DNA from: Malacoraja senta
Taxonomy: Eukaryota
Direction of reading: 5' to 3'
Assembly: GCA_038087875.1 (NCBI GenBank)
Contig: CM075992.1
Span: 10,480,001 to 10,544,000 of the forward strand
DNA length: 64,000 nucleotides
Under the pieces are notes generated by a model that made no database searches, had not been told where the DNA came from, and saw only the letters and a program-made list of their open reading frames with translations. Positions 2,469 through 13,035 of this stretch are shown here, piece by piece. The translations under genes and the position numbers were made by a program. Within the stretch, counting starts at the first letter, position 1. Every line of letters starts with the position of its first letter.

Positions 2469-2937
2469 CAATCCCTGCAGGCTGTGTTTGAGTTAAAGCC
2501 TTCGTCAAGTTCTGAACTATTTTACTGGAGAAATTAGTTCCTCTGTCACTGATTATTCCCATTCGTATCCCTAATATAGGTATTATTTACTTTATTAAAA
2601 TATTGACTACCGTCCTTGCATCATTCCTCCATGTGAGATGTGCTTCCACCTATCTAGAGAACATATCAACTATGACCAGAATTTAGTAAAAATCCTTTGC
2701 TGCTTACATATGTACAAAATCAATTTGCAAATTCTCAAAAGGCATTTCAGTTTATGGTAGGTGATCAAATTTTGCAGGCGTCTTCCCTCTATCATTTTGT
2801 TAACACACCAGACATGTTATTTCAACGTTACCAATTACTGTATGACTGATATACCTGGTGCATATCATGGTTGGGACAATGCGTGTGCCATGCCCTTTCC
2901 ATGTGAGCCTCTCCATGAGTTAGGCTCTTGAGGTAAA
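2469..2937 (-). pseudogene. Endogenous retrovirus integrase (zinc-finger region and core), decayed
   Basis: Manual minus-strand translation gives EMPFENLQIDFVHM*AAKDFY*ILVIVDMFSR*VEAH...DARTVVNILIK*IIPILGIRMGIISDRGTNFSSKIVQNLTKAL, a retroviral integrase core with in-frame stops. Confidence 0.85.
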
Positions 2938-3141
2938 TGTAGATGATATATGCATGTGCCTTTAACATAGTGACCTCATACCTACTAACCACTCCCCATA
3001 TCACAAGTATAACTACAACCTCCCCACCCACAGATCGCTCTCTAGTTCCTGTGACAAACCACGTACAGCTAGTGCAATATGTAATGCTCCAGTATGAATA
3101 AAGATAGTAAAGTAACGATGCCTCGTTATAGATTCTTTACA
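2938..3141 (+). repeat. 5' LTR
   Basis: TGTAGATG...CTTTACA, contains AATAAA, direct repeat of 6742-6945. Confidence 0.95.
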
Positions 3142-3237
3142 TGGTGTCAAACCACTTACCTTGCGCCTCCTGTCTATCGGTTTATCATTTAATTTTGTCC
3201 CAGTTTTTTGTTTCCCCCGCCCTCCTATTTCTTTGTT

Positions 3238-4929
3238 ATGGCCACTTCTGCCCGTAAGCCCGATGTGCTCGTTTTCGATTTGGACATCGCCCTTCGATGG
3301 GACGTATTCAAACGTGACTTTGAACACTATGTCACGATCGCTCATCCTGCCGCCACCGCTGATCTCAAAGCCTCTCTGCTTCTCAACTTGGCTGGTCCCG
3401 AGGCCCTGACTCGCTCTGACTTCTTCGTCTACGCTGATGGAGAATCTGCGCGGGACCCGGTATGTCTGGTGGCTAAGTTTAATGCTATTTGTGATATTCC
3501 AACAAACTGCATCTTAGAACGTTTTAAACTGTTCGCGCGGCGTCAGCTCCCTGGGGAATCTGCTGAGAACTATGTCTCTGCGCTGTGACACCTGGCCAGG
3601 CGCTGCCGGCTCCACACGTGGACCCCCGATGAGATTATCAGGGACCTTCTGGTTTACGGTCTCCGCGATGATAAGCTCAGGGCCGAACTTCTGCGCAAGC
3701 CCGATCTGACTTTCAACGATGCGATGCACGCCACCCGCTTAGCTGAAGCTGTCACCTCGGCGGTGTCACCGGCTGAACAGGCGATTAACTTTGCCAGCAC
3801 TTCCAGTCATCTGATGAACACGCCCCGGTTGCGGCCCCCGGGGTCGCTCGCTGCTCAAGGGGGACGTGCCCCGGGGTTCGGTACTGCTCCCGGGGGAGGT
3901 GCCCGGCAAAGGTGCCCTAATTGCAACTTCACCACTCATCAATACAATGTGTGCCCTGCCTTGGGTAAAACGTGCGTTGTCTGCAAGAAATTGAACCATT
4001 TCGCTGCGGCCTGTCGCTCCCGTGGGAAGCCTGTCGCTGCTCGGAGTGGAAATTTAAACAACCTTCTACAAACTGATAGTGAGCTCAGCTCCCAGTGTTA
4101 TTTCGACGAACGACGAACAGTCTGTTTCTGAATCCGACTCCTCTCAGGGGGAGAACAGCTTGTATACTGTGTTGGGCGCACCTGCTATGATAACGGACCC
4201 TTCTGTGCGAGTCACTGTGAACAACTCGACCTTCACTGCTAAGATTGACACGGGGGCGGTTGCGAACGTTATGTCAACATCTCTCTTCAAACAGATAAGG
4301 ACTAATGAGCAGATTTTTTCTCAGAACTCAACCTTGCATGCCTACGGGGGGGGGGATTCTTACTCCTGTGGGCAAGGCCACGCTACGCTGTAAGATACTA
4401 GAGACCTCTCGGCCCCTCACCTTCTATCTCCTCGACCAAAAATGCATTCCCCTGCTGGGTATCCGGGCATGCCAGGAAATGGGCCTGGTATCCTTCCACC
4501 GTGACATCCACCAGGTGCATGCCCTCATGGACCCGCTGGCTGATTATCCCGACCGCTTTGATGATGAGCTAGGCAAACTACCCTGCAGCTACAAGATTGT
4601 AGTGGACCGTAAGGTCGATCCAGTGGTCAATGCACCTCACCGTGTCTCCTTCGCCATGAAGGACAAAGTGCAGTCGACACTACACAGTATGGTACAAATG
4701 GGCATCCTAAAGGCGGTCATCGAGCCCACCAGGTGGGTCTCTTCCATGGTTGTTGCTGCGAAAAAGGACAATGGAGCAGTTGTTTTCAGGTCTACCGTGC
4801 GCCATCATTGTTGACGACATCCTCGTTTACGGTAAGGACGTTGCCGAACACGATGTCAAGCTCCGCCAGGTCCTGGACCGGGCCCGGCAAATCAACTTGA
4901 AACTGAACCCCAAGAAGTGCCGATTTCGC
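3238..4929 (+). pseudogene. Gypsy gag-protease-partial RT, disrupted
   Basis: Gag (ERFKLFARRQLPGESAENYV, premature TGA at 3586), zinc knuckle CVVCKKLNHFAAAC, protease KIDTGAVANV, RT pieces EPTRWVSSMVVAAKK and IIVDDILVYG. Frameshifts and an internal RT deletion are present. Confidence 0.9.
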
Positions 4930-5138
4930 ATCCCACTTCTGACACCATGTAAAGAATCTATAACGAGGCATCGTTACTTTACTATCTTTATTCATACTGG
5001 AGCATTACATATTGCACTAGCTGTACGTGGTCTGTCACAGGAACTAGAGAGCGATCTGTGGGTGGGGAGGTTGTAGTTATACTTGTGATATGGGGAGTGG
5101 TTAGTTGGTATGAGGTCACTATGGTAAAGGCACAGGCA
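4930..5138 (-). repeat. Inverted near-complete LTR plus 18-nt tRNA-Leu-derived sequence inside pol
   Basis: 4948-5138 is the reverse complement of the LTR lacking ~14 nt of its 5' end. 4930-4947 is ATCCCACTTCTGACACCA. Confidence 0.92.
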
Positions 5139-5160
5139 CACCGTTCGTCACCCATATGAG

Positions 5161-6672
5161 ATGTCTGATCTAATGGTGCTCCAAATGAACATCGTCCCTT
5201 CACAGCAGATGAAGTCCCTGGTTGAACACACTACCAATGACCCTGCCCTGCAACAGCTGTCTGCCGTCATCCAGCGGGGCTGGCCCGACCGTCGTTCCGC
5301 ATTGCCGGCTGGCGCCGTGCCCTACTTCCTGGTCCGTGATGAGCTCGTACTACACGACGGCGTGGTGGTGAAGGGTCACAAGGTGGTGGTGCCCGCGGCG
5401 CTGCACGACCACTATTTTCAAGTCGCTCACCGCGGTCATCCTGGGGCCGAAGCCACCGTGTCTCTCGCCCGGAGCCAGTTCTATTGGCCGGGTATGGCCA
5501 AATACATCCGGGAGAGGGTCTCCTCGTGTTCCACCTGCAACAGCCTCGCCCCCCACCAGCAGCGTCAGCCGCTTCTGCAGCAGCCCGCGCCCGAGCTGCC
5601 CTGGATGGCGCTTGCCGCCGACATTTTCGAGTGGCGAGGCAAACACTTCCTGGTTCACGTTGACTCCTACTCCAGCTGGTTTGTGGTCGACCGGCTGCGC
5701 TCCCTAACCTCTTCGGCCATCATCGACAGGTTATACCCTCATTTTGGCACTTTTGGCCCCCCGGCAAGCCTGCAGTCGGACAATGGCAGCCAGTTCACGA
5801 GCGCCGAGTTTAAAGCGTTCGCTTCCAGATGGAACTTCCGCCATTTCACCAGCAGCCCGGAGTACCCGCAAAGCAACGGTCTGGCCGAGCGTGCCGTCCG
5901 CAGCGCGAAGCACCTGCTGGAACAGTGTGGTGGCATTAACTCCGACTTCCATCTGGCCCTCCTCAACCTCCGCAACATTTCCCGCGACTCCGCCATGGGT
6001 TCTCCTGCTCAGCGGCTCATGTCTCGCGCTACCAGGCTCCCGCTCCCGGTGGCCCAGCGCTCCCTCATACCCTCCGTCCTCCCACCTGCGGCGGTTCAGA
6101 AACGCATTGCCTTCAGGCACGATGTCCAAAAGCGTTCACATGACAGGTCCTGCCACCCGCTGCCGCGCCTCTTCCCCGGTCAAGTTGTCCGTATGCAGAC
6201 CACTTCCGGTCACTCCAAGCTTGCTACTGGCGTCGGCTCAGCTGGGTCGCCCAGGTCCTATCTCGTCGACCATGCGGGAGCCATTTACCGTCGGTCCCGC
6301 CAGCACCTTCGGCTCGTCAACGAGCCGCGTCCTCCTGCCGCGGATCCGTTTGCTCCCCCACTGCCGACTTCGCGTCCGGGCGTTGATCTGCCCGTCCTTC
6401 CTAACATGCAACGTTCTCCACCTCCTCAACTCCTTCCGTCCCACCCTGCTCCGACTAGTCCTCGCTCGCCTGCCCGCGCTCCGCCCGCTCCTGATCCCGC
6501 ATCACCTCCGGGTTTGGTGCCGCGGTCTCCTCCGTCTCCTCCCGTTTCCCCCTTTCAGGTTCGTCTGCCCCCATCGGTGCCTCTTCCTCCTGCCGGAAGG
6601 GAGGATGGCGAGATGCGAACCCGGTCGGGACGTCTTGTCAAACCGCCTGTCCGCTATGGCGATTTTGTTTAA
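5161..6672 (+). CDS. Gypsy integrase, open 503-aa frame with proline-rich C-terminal tail
   Basis: HHCC (HRGH...CSTC), catalytic AADIF / SDNG / 35 aa / AERAV, and C-terminal RTRSGRLVKPPVRY. Stops just upstream of the PPT. Confidence 0.88.
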   Translation: MSDLMVLQMNIVPSQQMKSLVEHTTNDPALQQLSAVIQRGWPDRRSALPAGAVPYFLVRDELVLHDGVVVKGHKVVVPAALHDHYFQVAHRGHPGAEATVSLARSQFYWPGMAKYIRERVSSCSTCNSLAPHQQRQPLLQQPAPELPWMALAADIFEWRGKHFLVHVDSYSSWFVVDRLRSLTSSAIIDRLYPHFGTFGPPASLQSDNGSQFTSAEFKAFASRWNFRHFTSSPEYPQSNGLAERAVRSAKHLLEQCGGINSDFHLALLNLRNISRDSAMGSPAQRLMSRATRLPLPVAQRSLIPSVLPPAAVQKRIAFRHDVQKRSHDRSCHPLPRLFPGQVVRMQTTSGHSKLATGVGSAGSPRSYLVDHAGAIYRRSRQHLRLVNEPRPPAADPFAPPLPTSRPGVDLPVLPNMQRSPPPQLLPSHPAPTSPRSPARAPPAPDPASPPGLVPRSPPSPPVSPFQVRLPPSVPLPPAGREDGEMRTRSGRLVKPPVRYGDFV

Positions 6673-6741
6673 CTGTCCTAGCGCATGAGCCGTGGTCGCC
6701 CTGTCACCATTGTATTTGCCTGTCGTTTCGAAGGGGAAGGA

Positions 6742-6945
6742 TGTAGATGATATATGCATGTGCCTTTAACATAGTGACCTCATACCTACTAACCACTCCC
6801 CATATCACAAGTATAACTACAACCTCCCCACCCACAGATCGCTCTCTAGTTCCTGTGACAGACCACGTACAGCTAGTGCAATATGTAATGATCCAGTATG
6901 AATAAAGATAGTAAAGTAACGATGCCTCGTTATAGATTCTTTACA
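6742..6945 (+). repeat. 3' LTR
   Basis: Preceded by PPT GAAGGGGAAGGA and followed by TSD GTAAA. Confidence 0.95.
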
Positions 6946-6950
6946 GTAAA

Positions 6951-7395
6951 CTACCCGATCATCAGGGTGGACACAAACATTGCGGTCTTGATTACACCCT
7001 GCTTTGCTCCAGGAATTATTTTCCTTAAGTGATACTAGGCTCTGGGCATCATGTAACTGGGTTGCATCAATGCTACTCGGGGGCTTTCTTTGTGTTGCAG
7101 ACTTAATTTTAACAGCTTGTAATTGCGGTGTTTGCCTCAGGGGCAATCCGTTTGGCTACATAATACGCCTATCAGTTTCCCCTTGAAATACCAACATCCG
7201 TTGATATTTGAGCTTCGCATTAAATAACTGCAATTTGCCGTGGCAATTGAATAGCATCCAATAATTTAAGACCAGTTTATCAAGCAACATATGTTATTTC
7301 ATGTGGATGTTATGAATCCTCTATTTTTCCATAACTTCCCAAAGTCATGTACAAACCCAAACGCACAGCGAGAATCGGTTAGCACCTTTACCCTT
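6951..7395 (-). pseudogene. ERV pol: RNase H C-terminal half and integrase N-terminal linker
   Basis: Minus strand reads TDSRCAFG..HDFGKLWKNRGFITS, IQLPRQIAVI*CEA...RGN**AYYVAKRIA, ENNSWSKAGC...VHPDDRVV. Continuous with 2469-2937 once the gypsy is removed. Confidence 0.82.
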
Positions 7396-8879
7396 TATAT
7401 TACTTCGGATTCACGGGAGTGACAACTTGAAGACTCCGCCAGCACGCATGCGCATCATATCGTCTATCGCATTGCGCACGACTGGCTGGGGGGTGGGGGG
7501 GGGGGTGGGGAGCGCTGCTCCACCAGCGGCCAAACCTGAAGGTAAGTTCTTAAACTGTTTTCCAGGGTACGTTTTGCAGGAATCTCTGTAAGCCTTACAG
7601 AGGTCCTGCTAAATTTCGTGGCGAAGTCCGGATGGGCCGCCGAAGAACCTTTATGGACCGAGGGGAACCCCAGTCACGGACCACAGGGAATCCCGGTCAC
7701 GGCCTCGGGGTATCCCGCCCACGGACCGCGGAACACGCTACGGAGACCACGGAATGCAGGTAGCGGGCGGCGGTCGAATTCGCCTTTTCGAGTCGCTGCC
7801 GGTGGAGCCAGCGGCTTCAGACTGGTGCCGGTATCACCCAGGCAACCCGCTTGAGGGTAAGCCACTATTTCACTCTACAGTTGCCGGTTACGGACCAGGG
7901 GAGATGGTGGCTGTCGGGGTCGCACGGTCAGCGACTTCGACTTGGACAGCCCAAAGGGGGCAATCAAACAGAGTCGGAGAGGTCCGGGCAGGACGAGAAA
8001 GGTGGTACCGACCAGGAGGGTCTCCCTCCGACATTCTAGGGGACGTCTTACCCAGCCTGATATGGTCCACTAAAAGAGGGCCATGTCAGCACAGGTCAAC
8101 GGGGTCTTACGGCAGCACCTGTGACAGGGCCGCTCACAGATCTCCCTCTCGATGAAGGGGAGTGCATGGGTCAGTGTGTGACTGACCCCAACCCCGGAGG
8201 AATGTCCATGGCACATGCTGCCATTCATGAGCTTTGGCTAAACACCCCTACGCCACATGGCAGTTAAATTGTATTCTTTCAAATATATGGCTATACAGAG
8301 TGAGCACCATTATGCTACTTCAGCGGTTGTTCCTGGTATCATACATGAATCATCCTGCCAGTGGAATGAGACCTGCCATGGCAATCTAGATCCCTGGGCT
8401 GGAAAGCCTGTACCAATAAGCCACCTGTGCGAGCTACACATGGTGGTGTCATGGTAAATCCACCCAATAAAGGGACTGTGGAAGATTTTTCCCCTCGACG
8501 CCGAGTTTATTCATATAAAATAATCAAATCTTTGATTTAACTGGGATGGGCGTCTCCGTTCATACAATGACAAATAACTGGCAGGTTTTCCATCATTTCT
8601 ACCACTATGTCTAGCGTACGGGGGCCAGAGGCGCTCCAGTCCGTCCCGGCAGACTACATTCGTTCGGAAAGGAGGAGGACACAGAGTCACTAGCGCGTGC
8701 AGCCTGTTTGGTAAAGAAGATAACGACAGAGCATCCATTTGCACAACTATTGCTGGCGGCTGCTGAAGGAAGCAACCTGACAAACCCCAACTCAGAGTGA
8801 GTGCCAAGTTTGGGCATCAATGTCAGACACGATTGCGACTCGTCGCAGTTAAGAACGGTCCATCCTAAGGCATGTCAGG

Positions 8880-9245
8880 CAGCAACTCCTTGTTCAGGGT
8901 TGCAAATTCCTCCCACTCAAATGAGTGGAGTGGTAGAGGGTGCTACAGAAGTGCACATGTGCCTGAAGCGACACCTATTTCAGGGTTGCAATTCCTCCCA
9001 CTCGATCGACCGTAGTGATGGAGATGGTGCTAAAATGCATGCACACATGCCAGAGGCAGCTCCTGGCTCAGGTTGCATAAGTCCTCCCATTCGGACGTAT
9101 GAAGGATGAAGCTGGTTGAGGCAGCTCCTGGGTTAGTTTGCATAAGTCCTCCCATTCGTATGTATGAAGCATGAAGCTGGTGGAGTCAGCTCCAGGGTCA
9201 GGCTGCATAAGTCCTCCTATTCGGAGATATGAAGGATGAAGATGG
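8880..9245 (+). repeat. ~66-bp tandem repeat within the DIRS element
   Basis: Three good copies of GCAGCTCC...TGCATAAGTCCTCC.ATTCG...TATGAAG.ATGAAG at ~9056, 9122 and 9187, plus two diverged copies upstream. Confidence 0.75.
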
Positions 9246-10329
9246 AACCATATATATGACACTACCTGTCACGGATACAAGTTGGTAATATTTACACTTG
9301 GTTTTTGTACAGATGAATAACATGAGATTAGTTTATACTGCACTGCATACAAGCACCAGAGTTCTCGAAAATATGCTGGAGTGCCTTTCAGGGCAGGCTC
9401 GCTATTGTGGCAGATGTGGCCTGTTCATTGTTAACAGGTTCCACTCGCATGTGCAGTATCGACATTTCTCAATAGGGAACTTCGTGACTGTTTAACTTCC
9501 ATGGGATCAGTTTCCATTCACAGGGCACCGGAGGTATTTGAAATTTAGCTGAATGGGGCAATGATACAGTCAGAATCGTTGCAAAATCGGCTAATTTCAG
9601 CTCCCAGCTTATTTACCAAATTACTACAACCAGTGCTTCGGCTGTTCAGAGCTAAAAACAATTATTATGGCCCAACAGGATGATATTCTAAACACTGAAT
9701 TTTGCTAAATTAGCTGTATCAGCCACAAGACTATATTTGAGAAATTTGGTTTCTCATCCATCCAGTTAAATTTAAGTTAAATTTACGTTGATACCAACTG
9801 TAATTATTGAAAATTGGGATTTACAATTAATTCTATTAATTTGTTTGGGACTCCGCCCTGAGGCAAGAGATTGGAATTAATTCTCAAGTACCATTGCTAG
9901 CAGACCTTTGCTATTCCCAGCTGAAACTATCAAAGTCACCATGGTGGACGAACAGTATTCAGCATTGCTCCATTAACTTTTCATCAATAAATCTTCAGTT
10001 AATTACAAACTGATGCTATTCCTCAAAGAAAAATTACTAATACCAAGGCGGATGGGATTGGCATGAGTTACCAATTGTTCAGTTATATGGTATGATCAAC
10101 CTATAGACACCAGGTGCATTCTGTGGATTAAAGGGTTGTATGAATATGCATAATCTGCATGCTTAAGTCCAAGTTGATTCACTTTGGTGGTGGTATATCT
10201 TAATCACATGCGTATAATCAAGTCAAAGTATCCGGTGATAGTTTTACCTAACCTCATTTAACACAGGTATATCATCAATTGTCAACACAGCATTGATGTT
10301 GGATCACAATGTATTTAATGACATTGTGG

Positions 10330-10590
10330 CTCGATGGATCGCTAAAGATCGAAATGTTTGCATCCAGGCCCAATTACCAGTTGCAAAATATGTGGCATAT
10401 CAATGGCGGTGGATGCATTCCCGCTCCACTGGGGAGGAATGTTCTTTTATGTCGTCCTCCATTTTGCCTCATCAGACGGGTCTTGCAAAAATTCAGCAAG
10501 TTGCCGCTTCAGGCATTTTCGTAGTGCCTGTCTGGTTTATACAGCCATGGTTCCCGCTGATGTGGGGAATGATAATAGAACCATATGGTT
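10330..10590 (+). pseudogene. DIRS Dam-like N6-adenine methyltransferase domain remnant
   Basis: IEMFASRPNYQL, PPFCLIRRVLQK and IFVVPVWFIQPWFPLM across frameshifts. Confidence 0.75.
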
Positions 10591-10899
10591 ATTTCTGACA
10601 CAAAGTTTGCTGGTTTAGCCGTGACTCGGGAAACCATCCTCTGCATAATATAATCAATTCTTTGACTTGCAGACTCTGAAAAGACCGTTCCTGCTGCTCG
10701 GGTTGTTAAACCAAACCCTGGTCGTGCTCACTGCAGATTGCAGGGATAGGACCAAACAGCAGTATTTCCTCATAAGGAGATGGGGGTATTTGTTTTATGT
10801 TTATATTACATTTAATTCGGCACGGAAAACTGACGTCTTAAAGGTCAGATTATATGGGGTTGACAATCGTTAAGTTCAAGTGCTATTGACTGTGCCTAA

Positions 10900-11620
10900 A
10901 GTGCCTTCTCATCATGTTGGTTGCGGGGAGCAAAATGCACTCTGGCGGGTCTCACCCTCTCAGATTTAGGTTATGAAGGATATCTTCAACTCAAAACCTC
11001 CTAGGCCTAGGTAGGCAGAGATATGGGATGTTAACATAGTGCTACGTCGCTTCACTGGTGGGATCCAGCTACACCCTTGTCCTTGGTCAAACTCACTTAC
11101 AAGTGGTTATGCTCATGGCGCTGAGTTCAGCGCAACGGGTCCAGTCATGGCATTAGCAGGGACTGGACAGGATGATCATATCTGCGGGCTAAATAACATT
11201 TTATGTTTATGACTTAGGCAAGCAGAGTAGACCAGGGGCAACAGGTCTCAAACTAGATTGTTTGCATATCTCATGGACCTTCGGTTGTGTGTGGTACATC
11301 TACACCAGAATGTAAAGGTCACTAAGAGCCTTAGAGACACTGAACTAGCAATGTTGTCAGTTACATAAAGCCTCGTAAGAATGTATCACTACAGACCATC
11401 TCCAGGTTGTTAAAACGGGTCTGGTTTATACAGGAGTGAACACTGACATTTTCAAGTCTCACTCCACCAGGGCTTCAAGAACCTCAGCAGCAGAGTTATG
11501 GACGTTAGATGGACCACATCCTGGCGGCTGCAGGGTGGTCTACTAAAAGATTTTTTCCAAACGTTTAGAACTAACCCATTACAGATTGGGGGTATTTGCC
11601 AACTCTATGTTAGGTTCTGT
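10900..11620 (+). pseudogene. DIRS tyrosine recombinase remnant
   Basis: MKDIFNSKPPRPR..EIWDVNIVL, VVMLMALSSAQRVQS, FKSHSTRASRTSAA and ILAAAGWST motifs. Confidence 0.85.
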
Positions 11621-11975
11621 TTCATAGTTTCCTCCGGGTTGAGGGAGGTTACTATTATCATTATTAATTAAAAGCATCAACATGTCTATATCTATGTCAT
11701 GTCTGAATGCATTATTCATGTTCACTCATCATTGGTCAACTGATGCAGTGTGTGACGCATGGATTAGTTTCCACGGCATGAAATCACAGAGCTTTAAAAT
11801 CTTCACGTAATCACTACCGTGACTCCGAAGTAAAATAGTAAGATTAAACGAGAACTTACCAGTTTGAAGTTTGATCTATATTTCATGAGGAGTTACGTTG
11901 AGGGATTACGTGCCCTCCATGTCGAACCCTCTATCATAAAGGTCAGCTGGTACTCTAGTTATCTTATCTTACTAT

Positions 11976-12295
11976 CATGGCCACAGCGAGCAACACCGTA
12001 AATTGGAGGAAATGCACCTCATATTCTGCTTGGGCAGTCTACATCCTGGTGGCCTGAACGTTGAATTCTCCCAATTCTGCTAGCCCTGGCTGTCCCCTCC
12101 CCCTTCATCAGCCATCTGGTTGTCTCCTCCCCTCCCCCAGCCCTCGGGCTCCTCCCCCTCCTTTTCCTTTTTTCCTTTCTTCTCTCCCCACCCCCTATCA
12201 GTCTGAAGAAGGGTTTCGGCCCGAAACGTTACCTATTTCCTTCGCTCCATAGATGCTGCTGCACCCGCTGAGTTTCTCCAGCATTTTTGTGTACC
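11976..12295 (+). mobile_element. Penelope-like element 3' fragment inserted in the DIRS right-terminal region
   Basis: KLEEMHLIFCLGSLHPGGLNVEF (end of the GIY-YIG domain) followed by a pLTR-like tail. Flanked by 15-bp direct repeat ATCTTATCTTACTAT (11961-11975 and 12296-12310). Confidence 0.85.
12196..12236 (+). ncRNA. Minimal hammerhead-ribozyme core of Penelope type
   Basis: CTGAAGA-A-GGG TTTCGG CCC-GAAAC-GTT matches CUGAnGA...stem II...GAAAC-GUH. Confidence 0.65.
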
Positions 12296-12469
12296 ATCTT
12301 ATCTTACTATGTTTAGTTCGGCTTCTGTTATCTGTGATTTCACACCGCTGCTTTGAAGATTGACGTGCATGCATGCTGGCCGGGTCTTCACGTAATCCCT
12401 CAACGTAACTCCTCATAAAATAAAGATCAAACTTCAAACTGGTAAATTCTCGTTTAATCTTACTATTAT

Positions 12470-13035
12470 TAGATATTTGCATCCTAACCTTTTGCAAATA
12501 TGCAGGCACGAGTCAGGACATACAGCTCAGCTTCCTGAGCAGACGTTCCGGTTGATAAAGCATATGCCTCCAGCACTAGGTGGGGTGTGACTACTGAATG
12601 TCCTGCTAATAATCTGTCATCGCTAGGTCGGTGTAAAAAGCCATCAGTAAATAGTACCAGGTCACGATTATCAATCGGATGATTCTGTAAGTCCAGCCGT
12701 GGAGTGGCAGCGGATTCCAAAAGCAATAGACAATCTTTGTCACAGTCTTCTTCTGCCTTCCTGCAACTGGAATCCCAGATACTGTACAGTAGGCTGGCAG
12801 AACTCTAATTTTCCCAGGGATACTTTATGACCTCTTGCTGCCAAATGTTGCAGCAAATTAATTGATTCTTCATCATAATCAGGACCTGTCACAGACGCTA
12901 AAAAAAGGATCAAAGTAGACCTCTCTGATAATTGTCATTCTTCCAGATTATTTTTTCATTGCTGCTGCATATACGGCCGGGCTTTCAGGGGTAGCCTAGT
13001 CCAGGTATATTGTTCATCTTTGTAGGCAAAAGCAA
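12470..13035 (-). pseudogene. ERV pol connection and RNase H N-terminal half
   Basis: ORF 12484-12726 reads PRLDLQNHPI...LFTDG...AGHSVVT...LEAYALSTGTSAQEAELYVLTRAC, typical of gamma/epsilon-type retroviral RNase H. Confidence 0.85.

Follow-up and report, generated by a model that had tools for sequence, protein, structure and literature searches.

Plus-strand transfer by elements whose PBS is far shorter than 18 nt has been worked out mainly in yeast. In Ty1 and Ty3, according to the sections consulted of PMC5371799, the first plus strand over-copies the primer by 12 nt, becomes a dead end and accumulates in particles, and transfer is done by a later, tail-less plus strand. HIV-1 strong-stop DNA, in the excerpted biochemical data of PMC13191261, falls into products P1–P5 with a main stop before m1A58 and minor stops at 55, 54 and 37, and its 18-nt PBS accepts the product. 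Retroviral deletions with insertions replace the lost segment from elsewhere in the particle through short homologies at the joints, non-homologous switching being ~1000-fold rarer than homologous switching (PMC3187697, in part). Pieces of the Ty1 3' LTR bearing additional bases that only the cDNA contains are captured, without a TSD, at unrelated breaks (PMC11372161, in part). One inherited PBS base of the MusD/ETn family has been attributed to a misread m1A58 of the primer (bioRxiv 10.1101/2025.05.12.650695, in part), and autointegration yields inversion circles in which a processed LTR end is joined and an LTR lies beside an inverted segment (PMC7197481, in part).

Here we describe, in a window of 64,000 nucleotides (the whole stretch of DNA analysed, from Malacoraja senta contig CM075992.1), an inverted LTR fused to the 3' end of tRNA-Leu within the pol region of a gypsy element, an observation that our analysis confirmed. 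As in Ty1 and Ty3, the PBS is short and not inherited from the tRNA, the primer is over-copied and tailed product accumulates; unlike the yeast dead end, the tails here measure 18 to ~60 nt and lie in integrated, TSD-flanked copies. Their stops resemble those of HIV-1, but the evidence for them comes from insertions in the germ line, and tRNA-Leu serves as the primer. Replacement of a lost segment through short homologies recalls the retroviral deletions, whereas about 3 in 10 exact-pattern junctions of the host LTR subfamily are aberrant here. In contrast to captured Ty1 cDNA, the partner is almost always the element itself, and in contrast to the single MusD/ETn base, the genome holds hundreds of separate events with a mismatch spectrum. 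Autointegration was rejected as the origin of the insert, which lacks a processed LTR end: its U5 end carries 18 nt of tRNA and its U3 end is trimmed. The excerpts consulted of PMC6894440, PMC7197481 and PMC7472051 describe no such integrated products, and a literature search covering main texts and few subscription journals brought up no account of integrated LTR copies in which a long stretch of primer tRNA goes with signatures of its modification. Each part has a precedent (over-extension of strong-stop DNA, products that are dead ends, deletions with insertions, an m1A58-derived PBS base); the genome-wide record we did not find described.

The host element and its insert are organised as follows (window positions):

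2933–2937, plus strand: left copy of the 5-bp TSD, identical to the 5 nt at 6946–6950
2938–6945, plus strand: gypsy-type LTR retrotransposon with two LTRs, a PPT and a 5-bp TSD
2938–3141, plus strand: 5' LTR, 204 nt, with 2 differences from the 3' LTR
3142–3149, plus strand: PBS of the host element, complementary to tRNA-Leu over 8 nt only
3164–3170, plus strand: 7-nt box complementary to the tRNA-Leu variable arm, 14 nt behind the PBS
3238–4131, plus strand: gag-like reading frame with a stop near 3586
4190–4766, plus strand: protease and start of RT, frameshifted
4767–4771, plus strand: RT deletion junction between two 5-nt direct repeats, ~265 nt lost, separate from the insert
4772–4929, plus strand: RT fragment up to the left junction of the insert (RVT_1, E 1e-6, just below cut-off)
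4925–4934, plus strand: imperfect microhomology zone, pol and tRNA equal at 7 of 10 positions
4930–4947, plus strand: copy of the last 18 nt of mature tRNA-Leu (59–76, CCA included)
4948–5138, minus strand: third LTR, inverted, nt 14–204, with 3 private substitutions within its first 33 nt
5129–5140, plus strand: right junction, a 6-nt tandem repeat (probable slippage) overlapping pol by 2 nt
5139–6672, plus strand: pol resumed, integrase (Integrase_H2C2 and rve over cut-off)
6731–6741, plus strand: polypurine tract (PPT), read from the sequence
6742–6945, plus strand: 3' LTR, 204 nt
6946–6950, plus strand: right copy of the 5-bp TSD

The structural marks of Ty3/gypsy elements are all present: direct LTRs with TG...CA ends, a PBS, a PPT and a short TSD. 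The order protease, RT, RNase H, integrase is likewise that of Ty3/gypsy, with RNase H taken from two siblings and the window's own protease (aspartyl-protease match, E 6e-5) and RT matches below Pfam cut-offs. A Pfam search of both gag-like pieces returned 0 matches. With 15 differences from close siblings in 3367 sites, the host copy is young; it is also dead, carrying the gag stop, pol frameshifts, the ~265-nt deletion and the insert. Only window loci have the deletion junction at 4767–4771, the left side of which is present in 47 loci. The flank is a ~2.2-kb tandem duplication at 97–98% identity (1–733, 2217–2937, 729–1811, 6946–8025), the element sitting in one duplicate and the other supplying a paralogous empty site, near 729–733, with a single copy of the host TSD sequence. 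No tRNA genes were found within the window.

The 18-mer at 4930–4947 directly adjoins the U5 end of the inverted LTR (4948–5138), just as the sequence-only reading had reported. With up to 2 mismatches allowed it occurs once in the window (shuffled sequence, mean 0.02). The tRNA-Leu(CAG) genes of this genome (L133, L134) end in the same 15 nt with which the 18-mer starts, as does an intron-bearing tRNA-Leu(CAA) gene (L132/L244), in keeping with its earlier assignment to tRNA-Leu(CAA/CAG), and CCA is not encoded after these genes. In a gene search, 13 of 16 matches were set aside: they were not tRNA-Leu(CAA) loci whose exon is exact or nearly so, and 12 of the 13 were unrelated repeats. U5 runs straight into the complement of the primer's CCA end, and the tRNA part is longer than the 8-nt PBS and templated by mature tRNA; the proposal that the insert copies LTR plus mature primer tRNA is thereby supported. 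Simple recombination with a sibling had been named as the result to fear, should family members normally carry the full PBS. Behind the 5' LTRs, however, the PBS is 8 nt long, identical in 23 of the 25 cases listed and in one with an additional variant base, so the 18-mer was not derived from the PBS of an ordinary sibling.

At its other end the inverted LTR begins at nt 14, leaving 13 nt of U3 absent, or at nt 18 if the 6-nt repeat at 5129–5140 is a slippage product; the U3 shortfall first put at ~14 nt therefore holds in kind, with 13 nt counted and up to 17 nt on slippage. As first described, the insert is not flanked by a TSD and takes the place of RT/RNase H coding sequence; we find ~680 nt replaced, a segment that holds RNase H in both siblings scanned.

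These features bear on the idea that a tRNA-extended sibling inserted or recombined here in opposite orientation and was then trimmed by deletion. Such parents exist, as three siblings (L197, L201, L233) have a 5' LTR, a tRNA tail and antisense pol, and one LTR allele of the insert occurs in another subfamily. We nevertheless give this route very little credence: a second TSD is absent, the U3 end is not intact, each insert junction is unique among 40 scored matches per search, the remaining 158 nt of the inverted LTR match the host subfamily and not the other one, and ordinary siblings lack an 18-nt PBS. A simple nested sibling insertion was rejected, its own TSD and intact LTR ends both being missing.

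Public contigs, from one study and probably from other individuals, neither support nor count against the junctions of the window copy. In 2 runs searched at 100% likeness, no contig crossed either junction and 5112–5144 was uncovered, and those of 4 runs likewise bridged neither junction; such contigs demonstrate presence, not absence, and the window insertion may be polymorphic. The joint of U5 with the 18 nt (4930–4966) was found in contigs of both runs searched at 100%, which supports the class of fusion; the window copy's own junctions are given by the assembly alone. The uncovered stretch would suit an assembly artefact in a young, high-copy repeat, but this is barely credible, since assembly software has no way of adding CCA or spliced tRNA sequence, the U5 joint recurs in both runs, and the TSD and the empty paralogous site are clean.

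The fusion had been described for this one copy, but it recurs across the genome. Using exact patterns, we counted 31 tRNA-extended junctions in the host LTR subfamily (12 or more nt of tRNA complement after U5) against 73 places with the normal 8-nt PBS junction, the latter with duplicates uncollapsed; 28 of the 30 extended loci retrieved are distinct. By these exact patterns, about 3 in 10 subfamily junctions are tRNA-extended, and the fusion is a frequent family-wide product, not a one-off. A looser U5 pattern covering related LTR families gave 303 places, and copies running through the T arm past A58 numbered 308 places genome-wide; reversed-pattern controls for both genome-wide scans gave 0 places.

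Among the 30 other places of the subfamily, 24 have the tail on a terminal 5' LTR of full length; the remaining 6 comprise 4 truncated or undetected LTRs, 1 middle LTR of a tandem and 1 internal inverted LTR. A 5-bp TSD flanks 21 of the 29 subfamily cases checked (three of these cases being one event, and one having a 1-nt shift). Behind the tail, 28 of the 30 carry on within the element itself: 20 enter it in sense and 8 in antisense, and the tail of the window copy also joins the antisense strand first, as in those 8. Further jumps are frequent, and these copies finish at a normal 3' LTR. L197, L201, L233 and L234 have different TSDs and one common antisense pol acceptor (position 2651 of L225), a hot spot for jumps where 5 nt are homologous to the 18-nt end. 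Sharing of the three-LTR structure by other copies, raised at the outset, came down to one internal inverted case, L217. L217 was dropped as a clean second three-LTR copy, having no TSD and a 3' LTR that differs at 8 sites. The internal three-LTR layout is rare, and the window holds the rarer case in which the tailed LTR is internal; in most such copies it stands at the 5' end.

This consistency also bears on a break in pol, made after integration and patched with free strong-stop cDNA, like Ty1 capture at yeast breaks. The absent insert TSD, short junction homologies and clustered substitutions would fit end-joining, the Ty1 captures cited above set a precedent, and the tails of L200 and L221 are joined to non-element DNA. 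Against this, 28 of 30 other tails join their own element, whose ~100 copies of 4.7 kb occupy far below 0.1% of the 1.94-Gb genome, and tails so consistently joined to their own pol or element make break repair after integration unlikely. The inverted LTR and its host also belong to the same subfamily, and elsewhere in this copy another deletion lies between 5-nt repeats. Strand transfer and break repair had been offered as alternatives; aberrant strand transfer fits, and break repair is much less likely than a jump within the particle. L200 and L221 each consist of a solitary LTR bearing 18 or 31 nt of tRNA, and possibly represent one-ended integration or capture at a break.

The tails look, from their sequences, like reverse transcripts of mature, modified tRNA. 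Tails of 18 nt are the most frequent, making up 9 of the 28 distinct junctions in the subfamily and 9 of 30 when the set is widened, with further peaks at 34–35 nt (7/30) and 47–50 nt (3/30); the tailed copies may not all be independent, and their downstream junctions mostly differ. For the error spectrum, copies were required to hold tRNA sequence beyond A58. Among the first 100 of the 308 read-through copies, counted by hand, 29 carry a mismatch opposite A58 (17 A, 9 C, 3 G), against 2 errors in 400 at four non-CpG neighbours (Fisher p 5e-20); two nearby CpG positions have 7 errors each. A separate count of G opposite A58 from a 116-place set was dropped, as 4 of its G cases reflect one acceptor hot spot that supplies those bases.

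The intron of the tRNA gene allowed the template to be read directly. After removal of 8 non-LTR or shifted cases and of duplicates from 58, 48 distinct copies reach position 38; 43 stop within 3 nt, 5 continue across the intron in spliced frame, and 0 of 48 follow the 31-nt gene intron beyond 4 nt, which identifies the template as mature tRNA. Three of the 5 spliced-crossing copies have A opposite G37. At one variable-arm position, where the 4 gene loci found all have the same base, 37 of 48 copies differ, and absent isodecoder genes could lie behind part of this signal. The longest tails (L261, L252, L269) run spliced through the anticodon and show a break or mismatch near position 26, as m2,2G26 would be expected to cause. 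Human tRNA-Leu carries m1A58, m1G37 and m2,2G26, with m3C47d in CAG isodecoders (PMC5066629, in part), and m1A causes arrest plus misincorporation (PMC4787781, in part). By position and by arrest or mismatch signature, the tRNA-Leu of this species would carry corresponding modifications, m1A58 included.

We then turn to the joints of the insert itself. Microhomology with the flank had been suspected, and pol and tRNA do agree at 7 of 10 positions over 4925–4934; the usable part is 4 consecutive identical nt, 4931–4934, inside the 18-mer. Of 8620 internal sites, 50 offer a comparable 4-nt match. At 4926 and 4930 the window's base is that of the tRNA, and at 4929, the A58 position, it is that of pol. 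That 4930 keeps the base of the tRNA is what one would expect had a tRNA-tailed strand primed on plus-sense pol. Positions 4925–4928 match the tRNA too, and at 4926, where the window is of tRNA type, 31 of 32 close siblings differ, the tRNA base recurring, as counted by hand, in ~22 of the first 100 among 799 less closely related copies. The claim of a match of exactly 18 nt, ending at A58, is accordingly insecure: 18 nt is the commonest tail length (9/28), but here a copy of 18 nt and one of 23 nt with G opposite A58 are about equally likely. The longer reading requires the rarest error class; under the shorter one, the base at 4926 is parental or a later change.

On the right, the inverted LTR stops 13–17 nt before the U3 end, and a stop so close to the end of the template favours a PPT-primed strong-stop template copied almost fully. 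The three private substitutions near this end are clustered (p ~4e-4 at the copy's own rate of 15/3367, a post-hoc test). Slippage explains one of them. The allele at LTR nt 28 is seen in 3 other LTRs, of a different subfamily; a search covering this one allele found no donor subfamily for all three. The cluster may have been patched in from a different template, or it may reflect an error of local assembly.

Taken together, we put at roughly 80% the probability that the insert arose as a plus-strand strong-stop DNA of excess length, which two aberrant RT jumps in the particle joined into the element's cDNA before integration. The family PBS pairs with only 8 nt of tRNA-Leu. On the Ty1/Ty3 model, the first plus strand would copy the LTR and continue into the primer up to the methylated base, leaving a 3' tail that would have no partner at the PBS. 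Judging from the junction sequence, this tail could have paired with pol RNA at 4931–4934 and primed synthesis toward the 5' end. The opposite strand would later have copied the product, slipped 13–17 nt short of the template end and jumped, with 2 nt of homology, to an ordinary minus strand at 5139, a jump that would have removed ~680 nt and restored integrase, PPT and 3' LTR. The whole three-LTR cDNA would then have been integrated; the element does have normal outer LTR ends on both sides and a 5-bp TSD, the marks of integrase. A variant would have one minus strand make both jumps, switching onto the LTR, reading into the tRNA and switching back; its sequence outcome is identical, and we mildly prefer the two-step route. 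In L217 the inverted part extends beyond the PPT, which better fits the single-minus-strand route.

The simplest reading of the family as a whole is that it works like Ty1 and Ty3, with the tail stopped by base methylations instead of after 12 nt. Tailed strands would often prime on any element sequence offering a few bases of homology, and any product with two proper LTR ends would be integrated. More broadly, and with less assurance than for the insert, we think it probable that gypsy families with a short PBS in this animal routinely rescue tRNA-tailed plus strands by microhomology jumps, that roughly one new insertion in three or four is a copy rearranged in this way, and that the genome serves as a natural tRNA-sequencing record of arrest or misreading at m1A58, variable-arm m3C, m1G37 and m2,2G26. 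If so, it would hold hundreds of dated single-molecule reads of germ-line primer tRNA-Leu. The window's single three-LTR copy is chiefly a pointer to this genome-wide set. The tailed copies are in vivo end products of plus-strand transfer in an animal germ line, from which the failure rate, stop sites and jump rules could be read using genome sequence alone. Marks of tRNA modification likewise become readable where a species lacks tRNA sequencing, and through time via LTR divergence. For annotation, an apparent PBS of at least 18 nt in such families marks a failed copy, not the true family PBS.

Several further observations accompany these results. The 7-nt box at 3164–3170 is kept in the leaders of several subfamilies and may complete a two-part PBS with which the T arm could stay folded; a box-like match arises in 798 of 20000 shuffled leaders (~4%), weak on its own, and leader folding showed nothing unusual (z 0.24). 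Some tails meet the leader exactly at this box (L087, L071, L094). A second, decayed mobile element at 8000–12470, which may be DIRS-like, has a 65-nt triple repeat (9053–9247) and 79-nt inverted repeats at 11834–11912 and 12389–12467. L215 and L216 (G000:C2317:1734486-1738342) are tandem tailed, deleted copies sharing their middle LTR and junction. In a fold-back form (L137, L160, L257, L284, L286), the tail copies its own strand and yields inverted LTR-tRNA pairs, in one instance with A-rich filler.
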